Below are positions 2,599-19,931 of a stretch of 19,931 nt of DNA, one piece after another. Each line of letters starts with the position of its first letter. The stretch's first letter is position 1. Source of the stretch: Candidatus Eiseniibacteriota bacterium. Lineage in GTDB: Bacteria; Eisenbacteria; RBG-16-71-46; JABDJR01; JAWXBZ01. The notes under the pieces are model-generated. The model saw only the letters and a list, made by a program, of their open reading frames with translations. It was not told the DNA's origin and made no database searches. Made by a program: the position numbers and the translations under genes. Location of the stretch: NCBI GenBank assembly GCA_034440375.1, contig JAWXBZ010000198.1, positions 1 to 19,931 on the forward strand, written 5' to 3'.

Positions 2599-4005
2599 TC
2601 AGGGAAATGGAAAGGCGTCCATCACCAGGAGGCGAAGCGAATTCCCAAAGAGGGAGAACCCGAGCAGGAAGAGCGCGAGAAGGCGACCGGACCAGTTCAC
2701 CTCGCAGCGGGCGGCGTTCGACGTCGAACCGAGGTACCAGCGGATGGCCGCCAGGATGGAAAGACCCCACAGAATCGAACCGACCGCGGCCAGCCACCAG
2801 GCGGGTCCTGTGCGGGCGCTCTCGAAGAGATCCCATCGCCCGATGAAACCGATGGTGCCGGGTGAGCCGGCCAGGGAGAGCAGTGCCGCAAGGCCGGCCA
2901 GGCGCGCGGTGATGACGGCGAGGTCGGTGCGTTGATCGCCGGTTACAACGGATGCGGCGGCGGGTCGAAAGACGAAAGCTCCGAAGAAACCGGTGACCAG
3001 TGCCACGAGCACGGCGCGCGCGCCGACGATCGAGCCCTGGGCGGCGCCGGACAGGAGCCATCCCGCCTGCGCGAGCAAGAGGCCGGCCACGACTTCCGCC
3101 GTGTGACGAGCCCGAAGCGCGTCAAGCGTTCCCTTGAACATGGCTCCGAGCGCGATGAGGCCGACCACCAGGCGCCAGGGAATGGTCGTGATCACGGCGT
3201 CCACTGTCGAACCGACTTGACTGGCGAGACCGCTGCCGGTTGTGCGCAGAAGGAGAAGGAGAAGTCCCGCCGGGATGATCGTCGCCACGGCCGAGCGCGT
3301 GACGGAAGGGACTTCGGCCGGGCGGCCACCGGATTGTTGGGGCGGGGAGCTGTCCGTGAACAGCGCATCGAACGACGGTGTTCCCACCGCGCCCTCTGCG
3401 ATGACCAGAACGGGGAGGAGCGCCGCGCCGGCCAGGAGTCCGCTGAATGTCGTCTGGTGGGCGAGGCTGATGCCGATCGGAACGAATGAGGCCTCCGCCG
3501 TCATGCCGATGAGGCAGGCAAACCCGACGGCGGCGACGGCGCCCCGGCCGGCACTCCGTGCGAGGAATCGCGAGGCCGCTCCCCGCGACGCGCCGGATCG
3601 AACCGCGAGGAACACGAGAGCGAGAGCCAGGAACTGGAGGGCCATGAGAGCCGAGAGCGCATCCGAGGCGCGCGCCGCCAGACAACCGGCAAGGGAGACG
3701 TAAATTAACTCGCTCCGACCACCCAGCAGGAGGGAGGCCAGGGTTGTCGCCAGAATGACGCGGATGACAAGGAGCGTCGGGGCATCGGAACGAAAAAAAT
3801 CGCCGGCCAGGGCAGCCGGTTCGAACGGCACGGCGAAGCTGGCGGCGAGTGCGATCAGCGCGGTGATCGGCGCGAACCGCCGGGCCGTGAGCCAGGAGAC
3901 GTCCCGACTCCGTTCCAGGAGAAGAATGAGGATTCCGCCGATGATCAGAACCAGTTCCGGCCAGAGCCATCGGAGGGACGCGGCAACAGGAAGCGGCTCA
4001 AGCAT
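2599..4005 (-). CDS. NuoN-like (proton-antiporter family) polytopic membrane protein, degenerate
   Basis: LWPELVLIIGGILILLLE N-terminus, ASRFLARSAGRGAVAAVGFACLIGMTAEASF, IALGAMFKGTLDAL and LLSLAGSPGTIGFIGRW follow the NuoN pattern. Start ATG 4005 overlaps the upstream stop by 8 nt; 468 aa. Confidence 0.8.
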   Translation of the reverse strand: MLEPLPVAASLRWLWPELVLIIGGILILLLERSRDVSWLTARRFAPITALIALAASFAVPFEPAALAGDFFRSDAPTLLVIRVILATTLASLLLGGRSELIYVSLAGCLAARASDALSALMALQFLALALVFLAVRSGASRGAASRFLARSAGRGAVAAVGFACLIGMTAEASFVPIGISLAHQTTFSGLLAGAALLPVLVIAEGAVGTPSFDALFTDSSPPQQSGGRPAEVPSVTRSAVATIIPAGLLLLLLRTTGSGLASQVGSTVDAVITTIPWRLVVGLIALGAMFKGTLDALRARHTAEVVAGLLLAQAGWLLSGAAQGSIVGARAVLVALVTGFFGAFVFRPAAASVVTGDQRTDLAVITARLAGLAALLSLAGSPGTIGFIGRWDLFESARTGPAWWLAAVGSILWGLSILAAIRWYLGSTSNAARCEVNWSGRLLALFLLGFSLFGNSLRLLVMDAFPFP

Positions 4006-4618
4006 CGGGGCCGCTTCCCAGGCGCTGACACACGGCGGCGGTGGCCAGGCCGATGGCGACCAGGAGGACGGCCGCCGCCGGCCCTGAGGGACCGATTCCC
4101 GCCTGCTTTGCGGCAATGACGAAAGCCGCCCCGGCAATCAGCGAGGCGCCGAGCACGCCCGCGGCCGGCGAGTTGATCCGGCGAAGCGAGGCCAGCGGGT
4201 CCGGTGACTGGAGTAACTCCGGCCTATTTGATGCCGAAGGCAAGCACTGCCAGGCGATGGCCAGGGTGATGGCCGACCATTCGAATGCGAAGAGATAGCG
4301 CGTCAGGACCAGTCGTGCGATTTCCTGGCGGGACGGCTCTGTTGCGTTGCCTCCCGGGATCAGGTGCCAGACGGCCGTTATGGCGAGCAGGAAAAGAAGG
4401 ACGCCGAGGAGCGCGAGGGCGGGGCGGGGGCGTGGCACGGGTTCTGCGATCAGGCCCGGGGCCAGGAGCAACAGAAACGCCGCGAGACTGGCGGCATAGG
4501 ACAGGAGGCGCCCGCGCCCTGGCACTTCGAACAGCTGCCAGAAGGCTTGCATCAACAGAAGCAACAACGCGGCGGTGAGCAGGGTGTCGCCGGTGCGATC
4601 GCCATGTTTCGGAGTCAT
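3998..4618 (-). CDS. membrane protein resembling a NuoJ-NuoK fusion, degenerate
   Basis: LLSYAASLAAFLLLL (NuoJ TM3 VYAGAI-like), EIARLVLTRYLFAFEWSAITLAIA (NuoJ TM5 YLLPFE-like), then LRRIN...AAFVIAA...SGPAAAVLLVAIGLATAAV (NuoK TM2-3-like). It lies directly upstream of the NuoN-like gene. Confidence 0.65.
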   Translation of the reverse strand: MTPKHGDRTGDTLLTAALLLLLMQAFWQLFEVPGRGRLLSYAASLAAFLLLLAPGLIAEPVPRPRPALALLGVLLFLLAITAVWHLIPGGNATEPSRQEIARLVLTRYLFAFEWSAITLAIAWQCLPSASNRPELLQSPDPLASLRRINSPAAGVLGASLIAGAAFVIAAKQAGIGPSGPAAAVLLVAIGLATAAVCQRLGSGPDA

Positions 4619-4689
4619 TCGGTACCCTTAGGCATGGTTGGGTGTTGAATCGCAGCGGCTGGATGGCCGCCGGAAGCGGCCGACCCACC

Positions 4690-4743
4690 TTGCGCTGATC
4701 GAGCGCGCCTCCGTATCATAGAAACCGCGTCGGACAGCGTCAA
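4690..4743. promoter_or_regulatory. putative bidirectional sigma70 promoter with overlapping -10 elements
   Basis: Minus: TTGACG (4743-4738), 17 nt, TATGAT (4720-4715). Plus: TTGCGC (4690-4695), 18 nt, TATCAT (4714-4719). Confidence 0.6.
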
Positions 4744-4809: not shown

Positions 4810-5625
4810 ATGTATATCCTTGGATCGATACTTCGTTGGGCCGTGCTGGCCGGCTATCTCGTCAGCGCCGTGCTGTACATTGCCCGTCTGCGCGGGCGTC
4901 ATCCCCGGCATGCGGACGTGGCGGCAGCCCTCCTGCTTGCCACCCTGACCCTTCACACGCTCCTCCTTGGCGAGACGTTCCTGGAAACCGGTCGTCTGCA
5001 ATTTCTCCGGTCGGGACTGTCGGCCATGACTCTCCTCGCGCTGGCCCTTTCGGCCATCACGCTGATCCTGTCGGCCCGATTGAAGAACGCCTCCCTCGGG
5101 GCATTCACGGTGCCGCTGGCCGCTCTCTTCCAGGTCCTGTCCCTGGTTGATCGACCCAGCCGTGTCGGCATCGATCCGCTGCTCGATTCCTACTGGTTCG
5201 AGGTACACCTGACGAGCGCCTTTCTTGGCTATGCGGCATTCGGCCTGGCATTCGCGGCGGGCATCATGTACCTGGCGCTGGCCGGCTCGATCCGTTCGCG
5301 CCGAATTGGAAACCTGTTCGAGCGTCTCCCGTCGCTGACCACTCTCGATCGGCTCGGCTCGATCGCCGCGCTGACGGGACTCCTGTTTTTCACGATCGGA
5401 CTCATTTCGGGGGCCGTCTGGTCCTCGTCCGCCACCGGCCGGCCGGTCAGCGGCGAGCCCAAGGAACTGCTGGCCCTCATCACCTGGCTGCTCTTCGCGG
5501 GGCAGGTTTTCCTGCGGTGGCGATCCGGCTGGCATGGGCGGCGGTCCGCCCTGCTCTCGATCGCCGGCTTCGTGGCCGCCCTGGTGACGATCCTCGGCGG
5601 CGGGTCCGGGAGACATCCGTTGTGA
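4810..5625 (+). CDS. cytochrome c assembly (CcsA/HemX/YpjD-like) membrane protein
   Basis: About eight TM segments with WFEVHLTSAFLGYAAF, RLPSLTTLDRL, GLISGAVW...EPKELLALITW, GWHGRRSA and C-terminal His (GRHPL). Directly upstream of hemA. Confidence 0.85.
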   Translation: MYILGSILRWAVLAGYLVSAVLYIARLRGRHPRHADVAAALLLATLTLHTLLLGETFLETGRLQFLRSGLSAMTLLALALSAITLILSARLKNASLGAFTVPLAALFQVLSLVDRPSRVGIDPLLDSYWFEVHLTSAFLGYAAFGLAFAAGIMYLALAGSIRSRRIGNLFERLPSLTTLDRLGSIAALTGLLFFTIGLISGAVWSSSATGRPVSGEPKELLALITWLLFAGQVFLRWRSGWHGRRSALLSIAGFVAALVTILGGGSGRHPL

Positions 5626-6941
5626 GCGGGCTTCCCGGCATTCGGGTGACCGGCCTCTCGCATCATACGGCCCCGCTTGAACTGCGCGAACGCCTCACCC
5701 TCCCGATTTCCGAGTACGGGCCGCTCGTCCGGCAAATTGTCAATGAGGATGGATGGCTCGAGGGGGTCGTCATTTCAACCTGCAACCGGACCGAGTTGAT
5801 CGCGGTGACATCGGCGGCGGGCGCCTCCATTCGCCATGAGGCCTTTTCGCGCTTTCTCTCCGGCCGGGCCGGGGAATCGATCGATCGATACCTGTACCGT
5901 TTCGAGTCGGCGGCGGCGGTGGAACATCTCTTTCGCGTGGCGGCCAGCCTCGACAGCCTGGTGCTGGGTGAAGCGCAGATTCTCGGCCAGATCAACGAGG
6001 CGTTTGGCTCGGCGGCCGAGGCCGGCACCGTCGGACCGATTCTGGATCGCCTCTTTTCTCGCGCCCGACAGGCGGCCAAGCGGGTACGTCACGAAACCGG
6101 CATCGGCGAAGGACATGTTTCCCTGGCCTCGGTGGCCGTCGAACTGGCGGAGAAAATCTTCGGCCGGCTGGCCGGTCGTTCGGCCATGGTCATCGGCGCG
6201 GGCGATATCGCCCTGCTCACGCTTCGCCACCTGGCCGCGGCCGGCGTGCGCCGCGTGTCGGTCACCAATCGCACCGGCGAACGGGCGATCGACCTGGCGG
6301 CCCGGATGGGCGGGGTGCCGATCGACTTCGAGCGACGCTTCGACGCATTGACCGACGTTGATATCGTCCTGTCGACCACGGCGTCACCGGCCCCGATCAT
6401 GACCCGCACCGACCTGGCTCCGGTGATGGCGCGCCGCCGGCACCGCCCGATCTTCCTCATCGATCTGGCACTCCCGCGGGACATCGATCCCGCGGTGGCT
6501 GATCTGGAAAACGTCTTTCTCTACAACATCGATGATCTCGGCAACGTGGTCGAACGAAACCGGTCGGAGCGGCGGGGCGAGGCGGACCGGGCCCGGGTCA
6601 TCGTGGCGGACGAGGCGGGGCGCTTCGTCGATTGGCTGGCCACGCAGCATGCAGTGCCGACCGTCGTGGCCCTGCGCGAACGTCTCGATTCGATCCGCCT
6701 GGTGGAGGAAAACCGGCTGCTCGATCGACTTGGCCATTTGTCCGAGAGGGACAAGGAAGCGGTGCGGGCGTTCGCCGGAAACCTGGTGGGCAAGATCCTG
6801 CACGAGCCGAGCGTGCGACTGCGTGACGCACGTGACCCGCGCGAGACGGCGCGATTGATCGAGGCGGCCCGCCTCTTGTTCGCGCTCGACGAATCGAACG
6901 ACGGCGACCAGTCCAACGGACACGATCGACGGAATGATTGA
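5622..6941 (+). CDS. hemA: glutamyl-tRNA reductase
   Basis: GLSHHTAPLELRERL, catalytic STCNRTE, HLFRVAASLDSLVLGEAQILGQI, GAG dinucleotide-binding loop, IDLALPRDID. GTG start overlaps the upstream TGA (GTGA). Confidence 0.97.
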   Translation: MSGLPGIRVTGLSHHTAPLELRERLTLPISEYGPLVRQIVNEDGWLEGVVISTCNRTELIAVTSAAGASIRHEAFSRFLSGRAGESIDRYLYRFESAAAVEHLFRVAASLDSLVLGEAQILGQINEAFGSAAEAGTVGPILDRLFSRARQAAKRVRHETGIGEGHVSLASVAVELAEKIFGRLAGRSAMVIGAGDIALLTLRHLAAAGVRRVSVTNRTGERAIDLAARMGGVPIDFERRFDALTDVDIVLSTTASPAPIMTRTDLAPVMARRRHRPIFLIDLALPRDIDPAVADLENVFLYNIDDLGNVVERNRSERRGEADRARVIVADEAGRFVDWLATQHAVPTVVALRERLDSIRLVEENRLLDRLGHLSERDKEAVRAFAGNLVGKILHEPSVRLRDARDPRETARLIEAARLLFALDESNDGDQSNGHDRRND

Positions 6942-14691: not shown

Positions 14692-15076
14692 CCGAGTCCG
14701 GCTGGCCCGTCTCGTCCGCCTTGTTCTGGCGGGCGAGGGGCGGCGGGGCGCGCGCGTGGGCATCGTGCTGACCGACAACGAGGAACTCCGCCGCCTCAAT
14801 GCCGCGTATCGCGGCCGGGATTTGGTTACCGACGTGCTGTCCTTCCCCGCCGAGGCGACGGACTCCGAGGACGGCCGCTATCTCGGCGACATCGCCATCT
14901 CGCTCGAGAGGGCCGGTGAGCAGGCGCCCCGATTCGGCAACGAATTTCCGGACGAGGTCGACCGACTGCTGGTTCACGGCCTCCTGCACCTGTGCGGCCA
15001 CGATCATCATGCACCGGCTGACGGGCGCCGGATGAAGGCACGCGAGCGGGCGTATCTCGATCCAGCTTCTCGATGA
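14654..15076 (+). CDS. ybeY: rRNA maturation endoribonuclease YbeY
   Basis: LNAAYRGRD..TDVLSFP, LGDIAIS, HGLLHLCGHDH zinc motif. GTG start at 14654 is inferred. Confidence 0.93.
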   Translation: MSIAILWKKNPVDRVRLARLVRLVLAGEGRRGARVGIVLTDNEELRRLNAAYRGRDLVTDVLSFPAEATDSEDGRYLGDIAISLERAGEQAPRFGNEFPDEVDRLLVHGLLHLCGHDHHAPADGRRMKARERAYLDPASR

Positions 15077-16068
15077 CCTGGATTTTTCTCCCGCTGGCCC
15101 TGTCGTCCGGCCTGGTCGCCACTTTCCTGGCCTTCGCGCAGCATGCGCTGCTGTCGGCGGTTGCCGAGCGGGATCTGGAGGGTCCCCGGGGTGAGGACTA
15201 TGCGGACCAGGCGATGGTCACCCGCCTGATGGAGCGGCCCCGTTCGGTTTATCTCCAGCTGTCGGCGCTGCGCAATGCGCTCCGATGGCTTGCCATTGCC
15301 GCGGCGGCGGCGCTCGGCGTGCCGGCCGGCACCTATGGAGTTCTGGGCGCGGCGCTTCTCGCGGCAGCGATCCTGGTTCTGCTCGAGGAGGAACTGCCGC
15401 TCCGACTGGTGCTGCGCGATCCCATCGGCTGGGCCCTGCGGCTCCTGCCGCCACTGGAGCTTCCCCTTCGGGCGCTCCGCTCCCTCGGCTGGCTGTTCGA
15501 GGGAATCTACACTGGTTGCCGACTCCTGGTCCGTACCAGCCACCGCCGCGAGCCGCCACTCTCGGTCGAGGAGTTGACCATGATGGCCGCCTCGGGCGGT
15601 GCCGATCTCGGCATCGAGGAGCGGCGAATTCTGCGGGGCATCTTTCGATCGAGCGGTATCCTGGTGGCCGACATCATGACGCCGCGGGATCGTGTCCAGG
15701 CCCTCGACGCGGCCGGCAATGTCGGGCGGGCTCTCGAAATGTTTCGTTCGTCCCGCCACTCAAGGGTGCCGGTATACGAGGACTCCATGGACCGCGTTGT
15801 CGGCGTGGCCCATGCCAAGGACTTTCTCCGGCTGACCTACGACGCCACCGCCCAGGCCGCCCCGCTCCAAGATTTCCTGCGCGCCGCCTATTTCGTGCGT
15901 CAGGATCGGCGGATCCACGAACTGTTCGAGGAATTGCGCGAGGGACGCATCCACCTGGCTGTTGTGGTCGACCGACTCGGCCGCACGACGGGCATCGTCA
16001 GCCTGGACGACATCCTGGAAGAGATCGTCGGCGAACTGCACGATGACCTGGAAACGGCGGCCCGATGA
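15073..16068 (+). CDS. CNNM/hemolysin-family (DUF21 + CBS pair) membrane protein lacking C-terminal CorC domain
   Basis: Hydrophobic N-terminal region, VADIMTPR, HSRVPVY, HLAVVVDRLGRTTGIVSLDDILEEIVGE. ATGA overlap with ybeY. Confidence 0.88.
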   Translation: MTWIFLPLALSSGLVATFLAFAQHALLSAVAERDLEGPRGEDYADQAMVTRLMERPRSVYLQLSALRNALRWLAIAAAAALGVPAGTYGVLGAALLAAAILVLLEEELPLRLVLRDPIGWALRLLPPLELPLRALRSLGWLFEGIYTGCRLLVRTSHRREPPLSVEELTMMAASGGADLGIEERRILRGIFRSSGILVADIMTPRDRVQALDAAGNVGRALEMFRSSRHSRVPVYEDSMDRVVGVAHAKDFLRLTYDATAQAAPLQDFLRAAYFVRQDRRIHELFEELREGRIHLAVVVDRLGRTTGIVSLDDILEEIVGELHDDLETAAR

Positions 16069-16084
16069 TGTGGAGCCGAGCCCG

Positions 16085-17293
16085 ATGATACTGTGGCTGG
16101 TCGTGCTGCTCCTCCTGCTCCTGGCTCTTGCACTGCGCTCCGCCGCGGGGGGGCTCACGGCGATGGATCCCTCGCGCCTGGCGCCGACCGAGGAGGCGGC
16201 TGGCCTGGCCGCGCCGCCCCGGCTCGAACAGGCCGTCGCCGTCGCGCAATTCGGGTCCGCCCTGTCGGCGGCCGGGTCGGCAGCCCTGGCTTCCGGCGCC
16301 GCCATGGAACGATTCGGCTGGGGGGGCTTCGCTGCCGTCTGGGTGGCAGCCGGCGTCCTTGCCTACCCCTTGCTTGAAATATTCCCCTTCCTTTACCTGA
16401 CGCCACGCGGCGGGCGACGGATGGCGGCGGGGCTCCTGGCCTACTGGCCGCTCTCACTGCCGCTCGGCGCAATTCGGAGCGCACTCCGCTGGGTCATCGA
16501 ACGGATCATCCCCGGTCCCGGCCCGAACTCGTCGGTCGTGATGGCCGTCCGGCGGGAGACGCTTGCTGCACTCTCCGACGAGCGGGGAGAGGCCCGCACC
16601 TTGCGTCAGGCGCAGAAGCAGCTGGTGACACAGGTCTACGAGTTCAGCGAATCAACCGTGGCGGAGGTGATGGTGCCGCGGAGCCGCGTGGTGGGGCTTC
16701 CGGCCGAGTCGACGGTGGGGGATGCCGTGGCGCTTGAGGCCGAGCATCAATTCAGCCGGTACCCGGTCTTTCGCGGAACGCTCGATCAGATTGACGGCGT
16801 GCTGCATATCCACGATCTCCTTTCCGCGCCGGACCTCGCGTCTTCCATCACGCCGCACCTTCGGTCAATCCCGTTCGCGCCGGAGGCCAAGAAGTGCGAT
16901 GAACTCCTGTCAGAACTCCGGCGCGGGCATCACCACGCCGCCATCGTCGTGGACGAATTCGGTGGTACCGCCGGCTGGGTCACGGTGGAGGATCTGCTCG
17001 AGGAACTCGTCGGCGAGATTCGGGACGAGCATGATATCGAGGAGGAGGCGGTCCGCTCCATTGGCCGCCGGACCTGGATGGTGGATGCCAGCATCCGGAT
17101 CGACGACCTGAATCGATCCCTTCATCTGGAGATTCCCGACGGGGACTACGAGACGCTGGCCGGCTATCTCCTGGAGGAGATGCAGCGGATTCCCCGGCGG
17201 GGCGAGGCACTGCTGATCGAGGGGGTTCGCTTCGTGATGGCCGAGGTGGACTCGCGGCGCATCCTGAAGGTGCGTGTCGAGCGGGTTGACTGA
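16085..17293 (+). CDS. CNNM/hemolysin-family (TM + CBS pair + CorC/HlyC) protein
   Basis: [57 protein letters not shown]...IP...[14 protein letters not shown] at 16072-16075 before ATG 16085. Confidence 0.9.
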
Positions 17294-18319: not shown

Positions 18320-19774
18320 CTATCGAACAACCATGAGGCGTCGGACTGCCACGCCCGGGGAATTGCCGGAACGGGCGAAGTAGTGCCCCGGAGATGCAAG
18401 AGTCCCGTGAGCCGTTCGGCCATCCCATTCGAACTCAATTGACCCCTCCGCTTCCCCACCTCGCCGGTTGGAACGGCGTCCGATGAGATCCGCCACCCGC
18501 CGGCCGGTGATGTCGACGATGGAGACCGTCACGAAGTCTTCCGCCTTTAAGCTCGTGACCTGGCGCGCCCCCGTTTTTTCCGTCGTCGTCGTCGAAAGGA
18601 CAATGCGAACCGGATCACCGGAGTTGACGAGAACCATTGGCATCGCCGGTGGTGCGGGCGTCACCGTAATCTCCGGAACCTCTGGCGCCGCCATCACCAC
18701 CGGAGCCTCCGGTGCCACCGTCATCACCGAAACGTCGGCGGCGCCCTCGGGGTTAACCGGAAACGGGGTGTAACAGAAATAGGGCCAGCCCCGCAGGAAT
18801 TGGGGCACCCGCCGGCCCAGATGCGCCAGCGAAAAGAGCGTGCCGTGGCCCCTGAAGTCGATATCGCCGAGTGAAATTACACTTCCCGTTATGATCCAGT
18901 TGCTGGACGAGAAGTCAAACGTGCCGGTCGAATAGATTCCGATCGGATAATTCCCGCTCCCGATGGCTACCGGTCCCGATGAGATGAGATGCTTGACTGC
19001 GAGGCCGAGACCCGCCACCGGTTCCATCTGGACCCGTCCCTTGAGAATGGTCGTGCCCCCAATCCAGTAGAATTGACTGAGCCGGTCATTTGGGGTGGCG
19101 CCGACGAAACGGGTGTTGATCAGCGTGGCTCGAATCGGCGGTCCGCCGGCACCGATCGTGAGGTTCGTGACCCCGTAAACGAACGGTGTGGCAGCAGCGA
19201 AGTTGCCGATCACTGCCGAATCACCGGCCGTCGGCGGAAATATGCCGGTGGCGGCGTCAAACGGCCACCCGGATCGGCACTCGATCTCGAGAAGATTTCC
19301 AGGTGTAAGCTTCCACACGATGTCCGGGTGGGGAGAGGTCCCATCCGGCCAACTTTCGAGAGTGAGGCCATGGCGGTCACGCAATTCCAGGATCGGCGCG
19401 CCGGCAATGCGGCGGGCCAGGACCTCATAGCAGGTGCTTCCGGGGAACGAGTCGGGTTCGGTGTAGAGCGGTGGCGGGAAAATCGTGTAACTGGTGCCGG
19501 CAAGACCGCCACACCGAACTCGCCGCGCACCGTCAAGATCACCATTCGCGTGAAGGCTGGCGTTGGCGCACAGTTGTCCGCTGATCCGAATGTTGCTGAC
19601 GCCGAGAACGCCATTGAGATGGCAGCTTGGCTGCCCAAGCGCCGTCGGCGGTTGAACCAGCCCGAAGGGCGCGGTCATGATGGCCACCAGGCAGACGATC
19701 GCCACCCGCCGCCCGATCATCACCCTCGCGCCCATCGCCATCCGCCGAACAAGGAACATCGATCCGTTCCGCAT
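18320..19774 (-). CDS. secreted hypothetical protein with C-terminal FlgD Ig-like / sorting-type domain
   Basis: Signal-peptide-like RRVAIVCLVAIMTAPFGLVQPPTALG. C-terminal VTVSIVDITGRRVADL...FEWDGRTAHGTLASPGHYFAR...RRLMVVR is the FlgD_ig-type tail. GAGG SD precedes ATG 19774 (start uncertain). Confidence 0.8.
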   Translation of the reverse strand: MRNGSMFLVRRMAMGARVMIGRRVAIVCLVAIMTAPFGLVQPPTALGQPSCHLNGVLGVSNIRISGQLCANASLHANGDLDGARRVRCGGLAGTSYTIFPPPLYTEPDSFPGSTCYEVLARRIAGAPILELRDRHGLTLESWPDGTSPHPDIVWKLTPGNLLEIECRSGWPFDAATGIFPPTAGDSAVIGNFAAATPFVYGVTNLTIGAGGPPIRATLINTRFVGATPNDRLSQFYWIGGTTILKGRVQMEPVAGLGLAVKHLISSGPVAIGSGNYPIGIYSTGTFDFSSSNWIITGSVISLGDIDFRGHGTLFSLAHLGRRVPQFLRGWPYFCYTPFPVNPEGAADVSVMTVAPEAPVVMAAPEVPEITVTPAPPAMPMVLVNSGDPVRIVLSTTTTEKTGARQVTSLKAEDFVTVSIVDITGRRVADLIGRRSNRRGGEAEGSIEFEWDGRTAHGTLASPGHYFARSGNSPGVAVRRLMVVR

Positions 19775-19931
19775 CACGCGATCCTCTCGATTCTCAGTTG
19801 ACCACCACGACCCGCTCGGTCGAGCGGCCCACGGACGATTCCAGTGAAAGATAGAAGACACCGGAGGAAGCGCCGCGTCGCCCGGATCTCGCGCCCCCGC
19901 CTCCACCGGACGGGCTCCCACCCCCTGAAGC

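Follow-up and report, generated by a model that had tools for sequence, protein, structure and literature searches.

A gene pair for a divergent NuoN-type membrane protein without the proton relay and a small membrane partner in Candidatus Eiseniibacteriota

Organization of the locus

Two overlapping genes for membrane proteins are located on the reverse strand of the window, that is, the whole stretch of DNA analysed here (19.9 kb). The first gene (P0002, positions 3998..4618) encodes, from an ATG, a protein of 206 aa with six predicted helices that is a weak relative of NuoJ in its TM4-TM5 part. The second gene (P0001, positions 2599..4005) encodes, from the ATG at 4005, a NuoN-type antiporter-like protein of 468 aa without the conserved Glu/Lys/His relay. 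These are referred to below as the small and large proteins. The start of the large protein should be noted, since the longest frame opens at TTG 4137, whereas all homologs begin at residues encoded from 4005. The two genes share 8 nt (3998..4005, reverse strand; ATGCTTGA), and the stop codon of the first lies within the start of the second, suggesting that their translation is coupled. The C-terminus is PDA in all six homologs of the small protein and the N-terminus is ML[ED]P in all full-length homologs of the large protein. Such ends and starts are as expected from a conserved overlap, and the overlap of 8 nt may thus be conserved across the homologs.

A candidate promoter of the sigma-70 type (TTGACG-17 nt-TATGAT, 4715..4743, reverse strand) lies about 97 nt before the start codon of the first gene (4618). 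It matches the consensus at 10 of 12 positions, and the single site observed compares with 0.2 ± 0.4 expected from 50 shuffles. A putative Shine-Dalgarno sequence, AAGGG (4625..4629, reverse strand), precedes the ATG at 4618 by 6 nt. The pair is flanked by unrelated housekeeping genes, namely an rpsA-like gene for an S1 protein on the same strand (783 to about 2291) and, on the forward strand, a ccsA-like gene (4810-5625) and hemA. Of the other ORFs of the window, 17 were scanned and none matches a nuo or Mrp family. Neither mrp genes nor a DabA-like (carbonic-anhydrase-like) gene was found in the window, and an Rfam search of the window gave nothing. The original prediction, which described two intact ORFs overlapping by 8 nt with a near-consensus promoter of their own, unrelated neighbours and no other nuo genes nearby, thus agrees with the layout of the locus.

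The GC content at third codon positions (GC3) is 0.77-0.78 in both ORFs and 0.75-0.83 in the neighbours. Among the overlapping alternative frames it is 0.53-0.55 in two of three and 0.72 in the remaining one. With this native-like GC3 and with full-length homologs, both ORFs are real genes.

Similarity of the two proteins to complex I subunits

The large protein scores just above the threshold of the Pfam model PF00361 (24.8 bits against a gathering cutoff of 21.5, E = 1.5e-5), and the match is confined to residues 272-413, which correspond to profile positions 141-291 of 294. Its scores for the NCBIfam NuoN models are far below the cutoffs (26.9 against 590 bits for NF004446, and 16.4 against 332.6 for TIGR01770). 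The sequences P0008 and P0010 likewise give at most 35 bits with these models, whereas P0011 and other full-length canonical matches pass TIGR01770. A profile search of the PDB with the large protein found the Paracoccus NuoN chain 8qby_N (E = 3.3e-6). When its profile was searched against 1.84 billion representatives, only NuoN-type proteins were found beyond the family among the 10 matches checked, the best being P0011 over the full length (E = 4.6e-17).

Modelled with AF2, the large protein has about 14 helices (pLDDT 88.6, pTM 0.91). The helices are broken at residue 208 and residues 380-384, corresponding to the discontinuous TM7 and TM12 of the NuoN fold. In a Foldseek search with this model, NuoN chains come on top (E = 5e-14, TM-score 0.73-0.77) and those of Mrp follow from rank 28 onwards (E = 2e-10 and weaker), though this fold match is partly built in, since 48 of the 54 rows in the alignment used for AF2 are canonical NuoN sequences. 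In a careful tree search, NuoN together with the family is supported at 100/99 and the family alone at 100/100. The family stem is 2.62 changes per site in this tree, compared with a median tip of 0.85, and is 3.67, 2.54 and 2.51 in three quick trees. All four trees place the family with NuoN, and in the careful one it lies on this side of the division between NuoN and NuoM. Its sister group within NuoN is unstable between the trees; a NuoN clade of P0011 and P0034, which took this place in one quick tree, lost it under two other taxon samplings and in the careful search. The large protein is genuinely an antiporter-like protein of the NuoN type, though a most strongly diverged one, as the original prediction of a NuoN homolog had it.

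The residues of the proton relay should be compared between the family and canonical NuoN. Each of E133, K217, H224, K247 and K395 (E. coli NuoN numbering) is retained in 46-48 of 48 canonical NuoN sequences. In contrast, no family member has the canonical residue at the positions equivalent to E133, K217, K247 and K395. The position of E133 is occupied by Q in four members and L in one, and that of K217 by G, F or R. No member has K at the position of K247, and all six intact members have R at that of K395, where the surrounding TM12 motif G-R-W-[DES] is conserved in the family. The position of H224 is occupied by A, H, S, R or F. In a residue-pattern table of 154 rows, at least three of the four key residues are missing in family members only. 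The changes from K to R are partly attributable to mutational bias, since the proteins of the window are generally poor in Lys (K/(K+R) of 0.03-0.39). According to one study, the K247A and K395A substitutions in E. coli NuoN cripple complex I (PMC13073174). For the large protein, the predicted loss of pumping residues is thus confirmed.

The likeness of the small protein to NuoJ is weak. With PF00499 it gives 17.7 bits (E = 0.0032) against a cutoff of 33.2, and only one of its six homologs matches this model at E ≤ 1. The NCBIfam NuoJ models NF005165 and NF005167 give 15.6 bits against a cutoff of 192 and 13.7 against 137 (E = 0.006 and 0.039 for the two NuoJ models). In hhalign comparisons with a profile of five NuoJ sequences, the probability is 59-68% (E = 5e-5 to 9e-5) over only about 50 residues, and all matches place residues 69-122 on E. 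coli NuoJ 97-151, that is, TM4-TM5. Nothing in the N-terminal helices aligns with NuoJ TM1-3 by hhalign. Glu113 in the sequence E113-W-S aligns with E. coli NuoJ Glu142, and the aligned Glu is present in four of the five sampled NuoJ sequences. E113 as a universal feature of NuoJ was considered and rejected, because PMC8357420 describes Glu142 as specific to E. coli.

The hhalign probability with NuoK is 0.5%, and the two C-terminal helices contain no Glu. The original term 'NuoJ-K fusion' is therefore unsupported, the small protein having no similarity to NuoK and a likeness to NuoJ that is weak and limited to TM4-TM5. The AF2 model of the small protein is poor (pLDDT 50.9). Foldseek found no match to it at E ≤ 0.001, and an Atlas search found none above 0.83. 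The PDB profile search with the small protein gave one irrelevant match (E = 0.97). At best, judging from these alignments, the small protein may be a remnant of NuoJ TM4-TM5 accompanied by four other helices.

Distribution and constraint of the family

The family is small, amounting to about five clusters among the 1.84 billion representatives. Homologs of the large and small proteins are paired in three of five other cases, as indicated by longest contigs of identical length (34386, 20618 and 2364 nt). Family members share 43-67% identity, the values in the constraint analysis being 66-70% and 42-44%. Full-length large proteins of at least four distinct sequences occur, the most distant being 43% identical. 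The homologs agree in their starts, ends and lengths. One homolog, P0005 (424 aa), diverges from the family near residue 378 in a frameshift-like manner. For the large protein, identity at sites on one branch pair predicts identity on a disjoint pair (odds ratio 2.7-2.9, p about 1e-6), while the same comparison for the small protein gives an odds ratio of 1.2-2.1 (p of 0.03-0.6). The small protein evolves faster, with 48-53% identity against 66-67% for the large one. The conservation, co-occurrence and site-specific constraint argue against decay, in line with the earlier view that the pair is kept.

Searches for further loci gave no additional members. Scanning a genome collection with the family profile of the large protein yielded 53 pattern stretches, none of which was confirmed by tblastn. 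A scan of the collection with HemA of the window kept 80 loci from mixed phyla, the best being 35-46% identical, and tblastn with five queries found no match in them. Among 6501 stop-to-stop ORFs from these loci, the HMM of the small-protein family matched none. The sole match of the large-protein HMM there (E = 0.0046) was judged to be spurious, being a soluble frame rich in Ala and Arg. No match to the large protein was found in a plasmid collection by tblastn, and PADLOC and PHROGs gave none for the pair. A full-text literature search found no report of a relay-less NuoN/NuoJ pair among the papers listed, which does not prove that none exists. The family models now in use (NCBIfam and, at its cutoffs, Pfam) essentially give the pair no name, and it stands outside the described families, as originally supposed.

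Proposed role and comparison with known systems

Antiporter-like subunits (NuoL/M/N and MrpA/D) are defined by a buried chain of Lys and Glu residues, and which of them actually pump is a subject of current work. [quoted passage not shown] The large protein arose by duplication of a canonical NuoN, changed very fast and later came under constraint. The canonical relay, consisting of Glu in TM5, Lys and His in TM7 and one Lys each in TM8 and TM12, has been replaced in it. The small protein, which is not NuoK, would retain only the TM4-loop-TM5 signature of NuoJ within a six-helix protein. Judging from their genetic linkage, the two proteins are predicted to form a heteromeric membrane module, which presumably has lost the ability to translocate protons through the Lys-Glu mechanism of complex I and Mrp. 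Because the residues needed for pumping are lost, the pair probably has another job. The pseudo-antiporter would most likely be kept as a structural or accessory unit, for scaffolding or docking, rather than as an autonomous ion pump, and scaffold, decoy and regulator are conceivable roles.

The small protein may instead be a membrane partner unrelated to NuoJ, its matches being noise from hydrophobic helices, as would fit the scores that are all below the curated cutoffs, the single PF00499 match among six homologs, the modest hhalign probability across some 50 columns, the absence of a structural match, and the designation of the residue aligned with E113 as E. coli-specific in PMC8357420. 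However, three independent libraries or profiles agree on NuoJ in the same segment, the aligned Glu recurs in most of the sampled NuoJ sequences, and the gene overlaps that of a NuoN-type protein, which makes a chance top match to NuoJ unlikely; an unrelated origin is possible but somewhat doubtful. The pair might also consist of residual nuoJ and nuoN copies in the course of being lost. The extreme stem branch, the lost functional residues, the very narrow distribution, the apparent frameshift in P0005 and the faster evolution of the small protein could all be understood in this way. Contrarily, both frames in the window are intact with native-like GC3, at least four distinct full-length large proteins persist down to 43% identity with conserved starts, ends and lengths, independent branches have site-rate heterogeneity in common (p about 1e-6), and short branches within the family follow the long stem. 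We regard decay as very improbable.

The pair could also replace or add to the canonical NuoN and NuoJ of a complex I-type enzyme encoded elsewhere, leaving one pumping module silent and lowering the H+/e- ratio. The NuoN fold, length and both broken helices kept in the model, the conserved G-R-W-[DES] around the former Lys and the NuoJ-type TM4-TM5 of the small protein are consistent with such substitution, and natural complex I enzymes vary in the number of antiporter-like subunits that take up protons, according to a preprint (bioRxiv 10.64898/2026.10.08.757549). We nevertheless consider it unlikely, since the 19.9 kb contains no other nuo gene, the region of NuoJ TM1-3 that forms the E-channel with NuoK is unrecognisable, and the K247A and K395A substitutions in E. 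coli strongly reduce the activity of the whole enzyme, beyond one pump site (PMC13073174). The antiporter fold might alternatively move another substrate or ion, or work with a soluble partner. Membrane-embedded polar and charged residues are conserved site-specifically, including, in the large protein, R390 with an acidic residue two positions later and, in the small protein, E113-W-S, and a stand-alone PF00361 protein, DabB, is described as acting with DabA in CO2 uptake. On the other hand, Arg is a poor proton carrier, DabB-type proteins retain cation-coupling residues whereas all the Lys are gone here, no partner gene is evident within the window, and models of known transporter families give no match; such a transporter is just as improbable as the substitution. 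A further reading, a 'silent module' in which a non-pumping NuoN isoform with a NuoJ-derived adaptor is inserted into or docked on a complex I-type enzyme encoded elsewhere, gearing down the H+/e- ratio or capping the membrane arm in an uncultured lineage with limited energy, is a speculation that we hold to be quite unlikely. If true, the large protein would become the first known case of an antiporter-like subunit that selection maintains without any ionisable relay.

Returning to the pseudo-antiporter that we prefer, a NuoN-type fold kept under selection after relay loss, with a NuoJ-like partner that we regard as co-evolving, provides a natural experiment on the non-proton roles of the fold, which may include scaffolding, handling of lipid or quinone, and tuning of stoichiometry. 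The weight of the finding is limited by its rarity, the family being known from a handful of metagenomic contigs.

Comparison with known systems places the pair nearest to complex I. DabB of the DAB CO2 uptake system resembles the large protein in concept only, being an antiporter-like protein outside complex I in a small gene set; it differs in its association with DabA, for which the window has no gene. MrpD and the Mbh, Mbs and Hyf subunits share the PF00361 fold, but they are farther than NuoN by all measures used, the window lacks mrp-type genes, and the large protein has none of the conserved Lys/Glu. NuoK (ND4L) is similar only in size to the hairpin that ends the small protein, which has two helices against three, and the membrane residues E36 and E72 of NuoK, invariant in the alignment examined, have no counterpart. 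NuoJ (ND6) shares the TM4-loop-TM5 including the stretch Y-x4-E-x2-[SA], and the small-protein gene adjoins that of an antiporter-like subunit. The small protein, however, has six helices instead of five, N-terminal helices that cannot be aligned with TM1-3, the site of E. coli Glu55 and Tyr59, and two additional C-terminal helices rich in Gly and Ala. The large protein differs from NuoN in its scores (16-27 bits, where the curated cutoffs are 333-590), in a longer variable loop in place of the stretch P-F-H-x-W-x-P-D-x-Y-E-G-A-P, in a deletion of 13 residues between TM3 and TM4, and in the location of its gene outside a nuo or ndh operon, with no nuoM, nuoL or nuoK in the window. Nevertheless, it belongs to the same length class as NuoN, ND2 and NdhB, has about 14 helices with the breaks in TM7 and TM12 in the model, retains the TM12 motif S-L-A-G-x-P-x-x-G-F of NuoN, and finds its best sequence, profile and structure matches among these proteins.

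Gene pair and its surroundings

The two genes lie on the minus strand. The gene of the small protein (P0002) runs from the ATG at 4618 to 3998 (206 codons, TGA at 4000-3998), and that of the large protein (P0001) from the ATG at 4005 to 2599 (468 codons). Both frames are intact and overlap by 8 nt, reading ATGCTTGA, as originally predicted. AAGGG is located 6 nt ahead of the first ATG. The promoter that had been proposed for the pair corresponds to a sigma-70-like site, TTGACG-17-TATGAT (4743..4715, minus strand), with 10/12 positions matching the consensus; one such site was found, compared with 0.2 ± 0.4 in shuffles. The longest version of the large-protein frame starts from a TTG at 4137. 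However, the start is placed at 4005, because the N-terminus of every full-length homolog corresponds to the residues encoded from there. GC3 is 0.77-0.78 in both frames and 0.75-0.83 in nine other genes measured; in the overlapping alternative frames it is 0.53-0.55 in two of three and 0.72 in the third. Both frames of the pair are real genes, native in composition.

The other ORFs scanned in the window, 17 in all, include no membrane gene of the nuo, mrp or hydrogenase type, and therefore the pair stands alone within 19.9 kb, in agreement with the original prediction. An rpsA-like S1 protein gene follows downstream on the same strand, beyond an untranslated gap of about 305 nt (2292-2598) that separates the stop codon of the large-protein gene from the likely start of rpsA. 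No terminator-like site is listed and no Rfam match is found in this gap, so that transcription from the pair possibly runs on into rpsA.

Upstream, a ccsA-like gene and hemA are divergent from the pair. The ccsA-like ORF (CcsB/HemX-type) runs into the longest hemA frame (together 4810-6941, plus strand). Since the GTG of hemA at 5517 overlaps this ORF by 109 nt, the true hemA start is probably further downstream. Farther along the window are hisS, aspS, phoH, a 7TM-HD protein gene, ybeY, CNNM/CBS/CorC genes, recO and a gene for a FlgD_ig-domain protein. Two plus-strand ORFs there, 15073-16068 (CNNM and CBS domains) and 15962-17293 (CBS and CorC_HlyC), overlap by 107 nt and are either tandem paralogs or a single split or frameshifted CorC-type gene. 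A large ORF (18320-19921, minus strand) runs off the window end; it bears no NCBIfam name, and its sole match is a C-terminal FlgD Ig-like domain (E 4.9e-6, just under the cutoff).

Descent of the two proteins

P0001 narrowly passes PF00361 in Pfam (24.8 vs 21.5 bits), over residues 272-413 only, and reaches 16-27 bits with the NCBIfam NuoN models, whose cutoffs are 333-590. In a PDB search, a profile built from three family members matches Paracoccus NuoN (E 3.3e-6). Among 1.84 billion representatives, searched exhaustively with HMMER, 153 proteins reach E ≤ 0.001 and five reach E ≤ 1e-10, namely the family's own cluster, P0008 (a family relative of 463 aa, 43% identity), two fragments and P0011, which is a canonical NuoN by NCBIfam (399.6 bits, cutoff 332.6). 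All ten further matches checked are NuoN-type.

In the AF2 model of P0001 (pLDDT 88.6, pTM 0.91), helices are interrupted at the positions of TM7 and TM12. Foldseek places complex I N chains (E. coli, Paracoccus and mycobacterial) among the best matches, together with cyanobacterial NDH-1 B chains (E 5e-14 to 1e-12, TM 0.72-0.77). Part of this agreement in fold comes from the input, because most of the 54-row alignment (6 family and 48 canonical rows) is canonical NuoN. The first Mrp chain appears at rank 28. P0001 belongs to the PF00361 superfamily and descends from NuoN, and the assignment as a NuoN homolog stands.

In the careful IQ-TREE run (26 rows), NuoN and the family are split from NuoM at 100/99 support, and the family is monophyletic (100/100). 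The family stem measures 2.62 changes per column, the median tip 0.85 and the within-family branches 0.22-0.99. The same points emerge from three quick trees, whose family stems are 3.67, 2.54 and 2.51; the sister group inside NuoN differs between trees. The overall pattern suggests a burst of change and then slower evolution.

The ESM Atlas clusters nearest to P0001 are weakly annotated PF00361-like families: one (score 0.95) has 180 members, mostly Chloroflexota, with Pfam on 67%, and another (score 0.92) has 99 members from Dormiibacterota with no Pfam family. Divergent antiporter-like proteins may thus be commoner than this family alone.

For P0002, AF2 gives six helices (7-31, 36-56, 66-84, 97-124, 150-173 and 178-202) at low confidence (pLDDT 50.9), and Foldseek and the Atlas yielded nothing usable. 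PF00499 matches under its cutoff (E 0.0032), and only one of six homologs reaches it at E ≤ 1; two NCBIfam NuoJ models give E 0.006 and 0.039. By hhalign, the six-member family matches five NuoJ (E. coli and four plasmids) at 59-68% probability (E 5e-5 to 9e-5). All the NuoJ matches fall within residues 62-122 (69-122 by hhalign), equivalent to TM4-loop-TM5 of E. coli NuoJ, and no part of P0002 aligns with NuoJ TM1-3. This sequence evidence is weak but consistent, and P0002 probably originates from NuoJ. The original prediction of a NuoJ-NuoK fusion, on the other hand, is unsupported, because the hhalign probability with five NuoK is 0.5%, and because NuoK has three helices with two invariant Glu residues whereas the C-terminal part of P0002 has two helices and no Glu.

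Relay residues of the large protein

Positions in the family were assigned by E. coli NuoN numbering for comparison with 48 canonical NuoN. Glu133 (E in 46/48) is Q in four members and L in one, Tyr159 (Y in 46/48) is F or D, and Lys217 (K in 48/48) is G, F, F, F and R. His224 (H in 48/48) is A, A, H, S, R and F. Lys247 (K in 47/48) is never K, but R or A, varying with the alignment, and on the branch of P0008 V or T. Ser301 and Ser302 (S in 48/48 and 37/48) are L/L, V or I, and Lys395 (K in 48/48) is R in 6/6 intact members. The family also has a longer variable loop in place of the post-TM7 P-F-H-x-W-x-P-D-x-Y-E-G-A-P stretch and lacks 13 residues between TM3 and TM4. The large protein is indeed stripped of pumping residues, as had been claimed: Glu133, Lys217, Lys247 and Lys395, retained in 46-48 of 48 canonical NuoN, are replaced. 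As reported in PMC13073174, the E. coli K247A and K395A variants show NADH oxidase and pumping activities of 6-35% of wild type.

A second mapping of four relay residues by hmmalign (154 rows) gave E-K-K-K in 78 rows, and 53 fragments retain K at every site covered. At least three of the four are missing only in family rows. Partial loss is observed in other NuoN-type representatives: the unrelated P0065, which has a long branch to itself, shows E-K-F-R, and of two fragments, P0110 shows Q-Q-R and P0017 carries R at the TM12 position. The proteins of the window are generally Lys-poor; even so, no canonical NuoN among 25 counted has fewer than five Lys, whereas the total in the family is 0-3.

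Conservation and possible role of the pair

Word-based searches added three large proteins (66-67% identity) and five small ones (48-53% identity to P0002). The longest contigs of a small- and a large-protein homolog are equal in length in 3/5 cases (34386, 20618 and 2364 nt), implying that both genes are on one contig. The small proteins end in PDA in 6/6, and all full-length large proteins begin with ML[ED]P; such ends would fit a ATGCTTGA overlap conserved among the homologs. One of the three added large proteins, P0005 (424 aa), no longer follows the family beyond about residue 378 and is cut short as if by a frameshift, which would point either to an error in assembly or to a broken gene copy on its contig.

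The family profile has no match in 185,579 species-representative genomes. This collection has 463 confirmed relatives of the window's HemA (5517-6941, plus strand); the best 80 share 35-46% identity with it and come from mixed phyla including Acidobacteriota, Armatimonadota and Thermodesulfobacteriota; the source lineage therefore seems to have no close representative in this collection. Neither pair protein is encoded within 10 kb of hemA in any of these 80 loci, though a ccsA-like gene is just upstream of hemA in 70, so the pair does not belong to the ccsA-hemA neighbourhood, which is widespread. The ccsA-like gene and hemA are a standard pair unrelated to the NuoN-like gene pair. The plasmid collection has no record with a relative of the large protein. 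Sulfitobacter and Gordonia plasmids (L083, 1630-8086, and L085, 1-8242) carry nuo-like membrane sets H, J, K, L, M and N, with A also in the Gordonia set and E/F/G genes absent from either stretch shown; in S. meliloti pSymA, nuoK and nuoM are separated by extra Mrp-type genes.

The data show a genetically coupled and conserved pair, made up of a NuoN-type protein that lacks the relay and a small membrane partner. We favor, at a probability of about 0.5, a combined reading in which the two proteins would bind each other and, having lost the Lys/Glu/His chain and with Arg in place of the TM12 Lys, would be unable to transfer protons in the manner of complex I or Mrp. The module would then persist in the membrane as a pseudo-antiporter that serves in structure, docking or regulation.

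Decay of both genes is very improbable. In the large protein, identity in one sequence pair predicts identity in a branch-disjoint pair (OR 2.7-2.9, p 7e-7 to 7e-6), and therefore sites differ in constraint alike in independent lineages. Neutral decay would not give this pattern, which bears out, for the large protein, the claim that the module is kept; the same test on the small protein gave OR 1.2-2.1 (p 0.03-0.6). It is unlikely that the pair swaps, as a silent module, into a complex I whose genes lie elsewhere, an idea favored by the natural variation in which antiporter-like subunits of complex I take up protons, as reported in bioRxiv 10.64898/2026.10.08.757549. A transporter that has gained a new substrate or partner, by analogy with DabB, would be a similarly doubtful explanation.

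A shallow search of literature summaries gave no account of a relay-less NuoN paired with a small partner. Compared with the known systems, P0002 falls below the NuoJ model cutoffs and departs from NuoK in every test, and P0001 departs from NuoN in the equivalog models, the residues and the operon. P0001 is predicted to work like nothing described.
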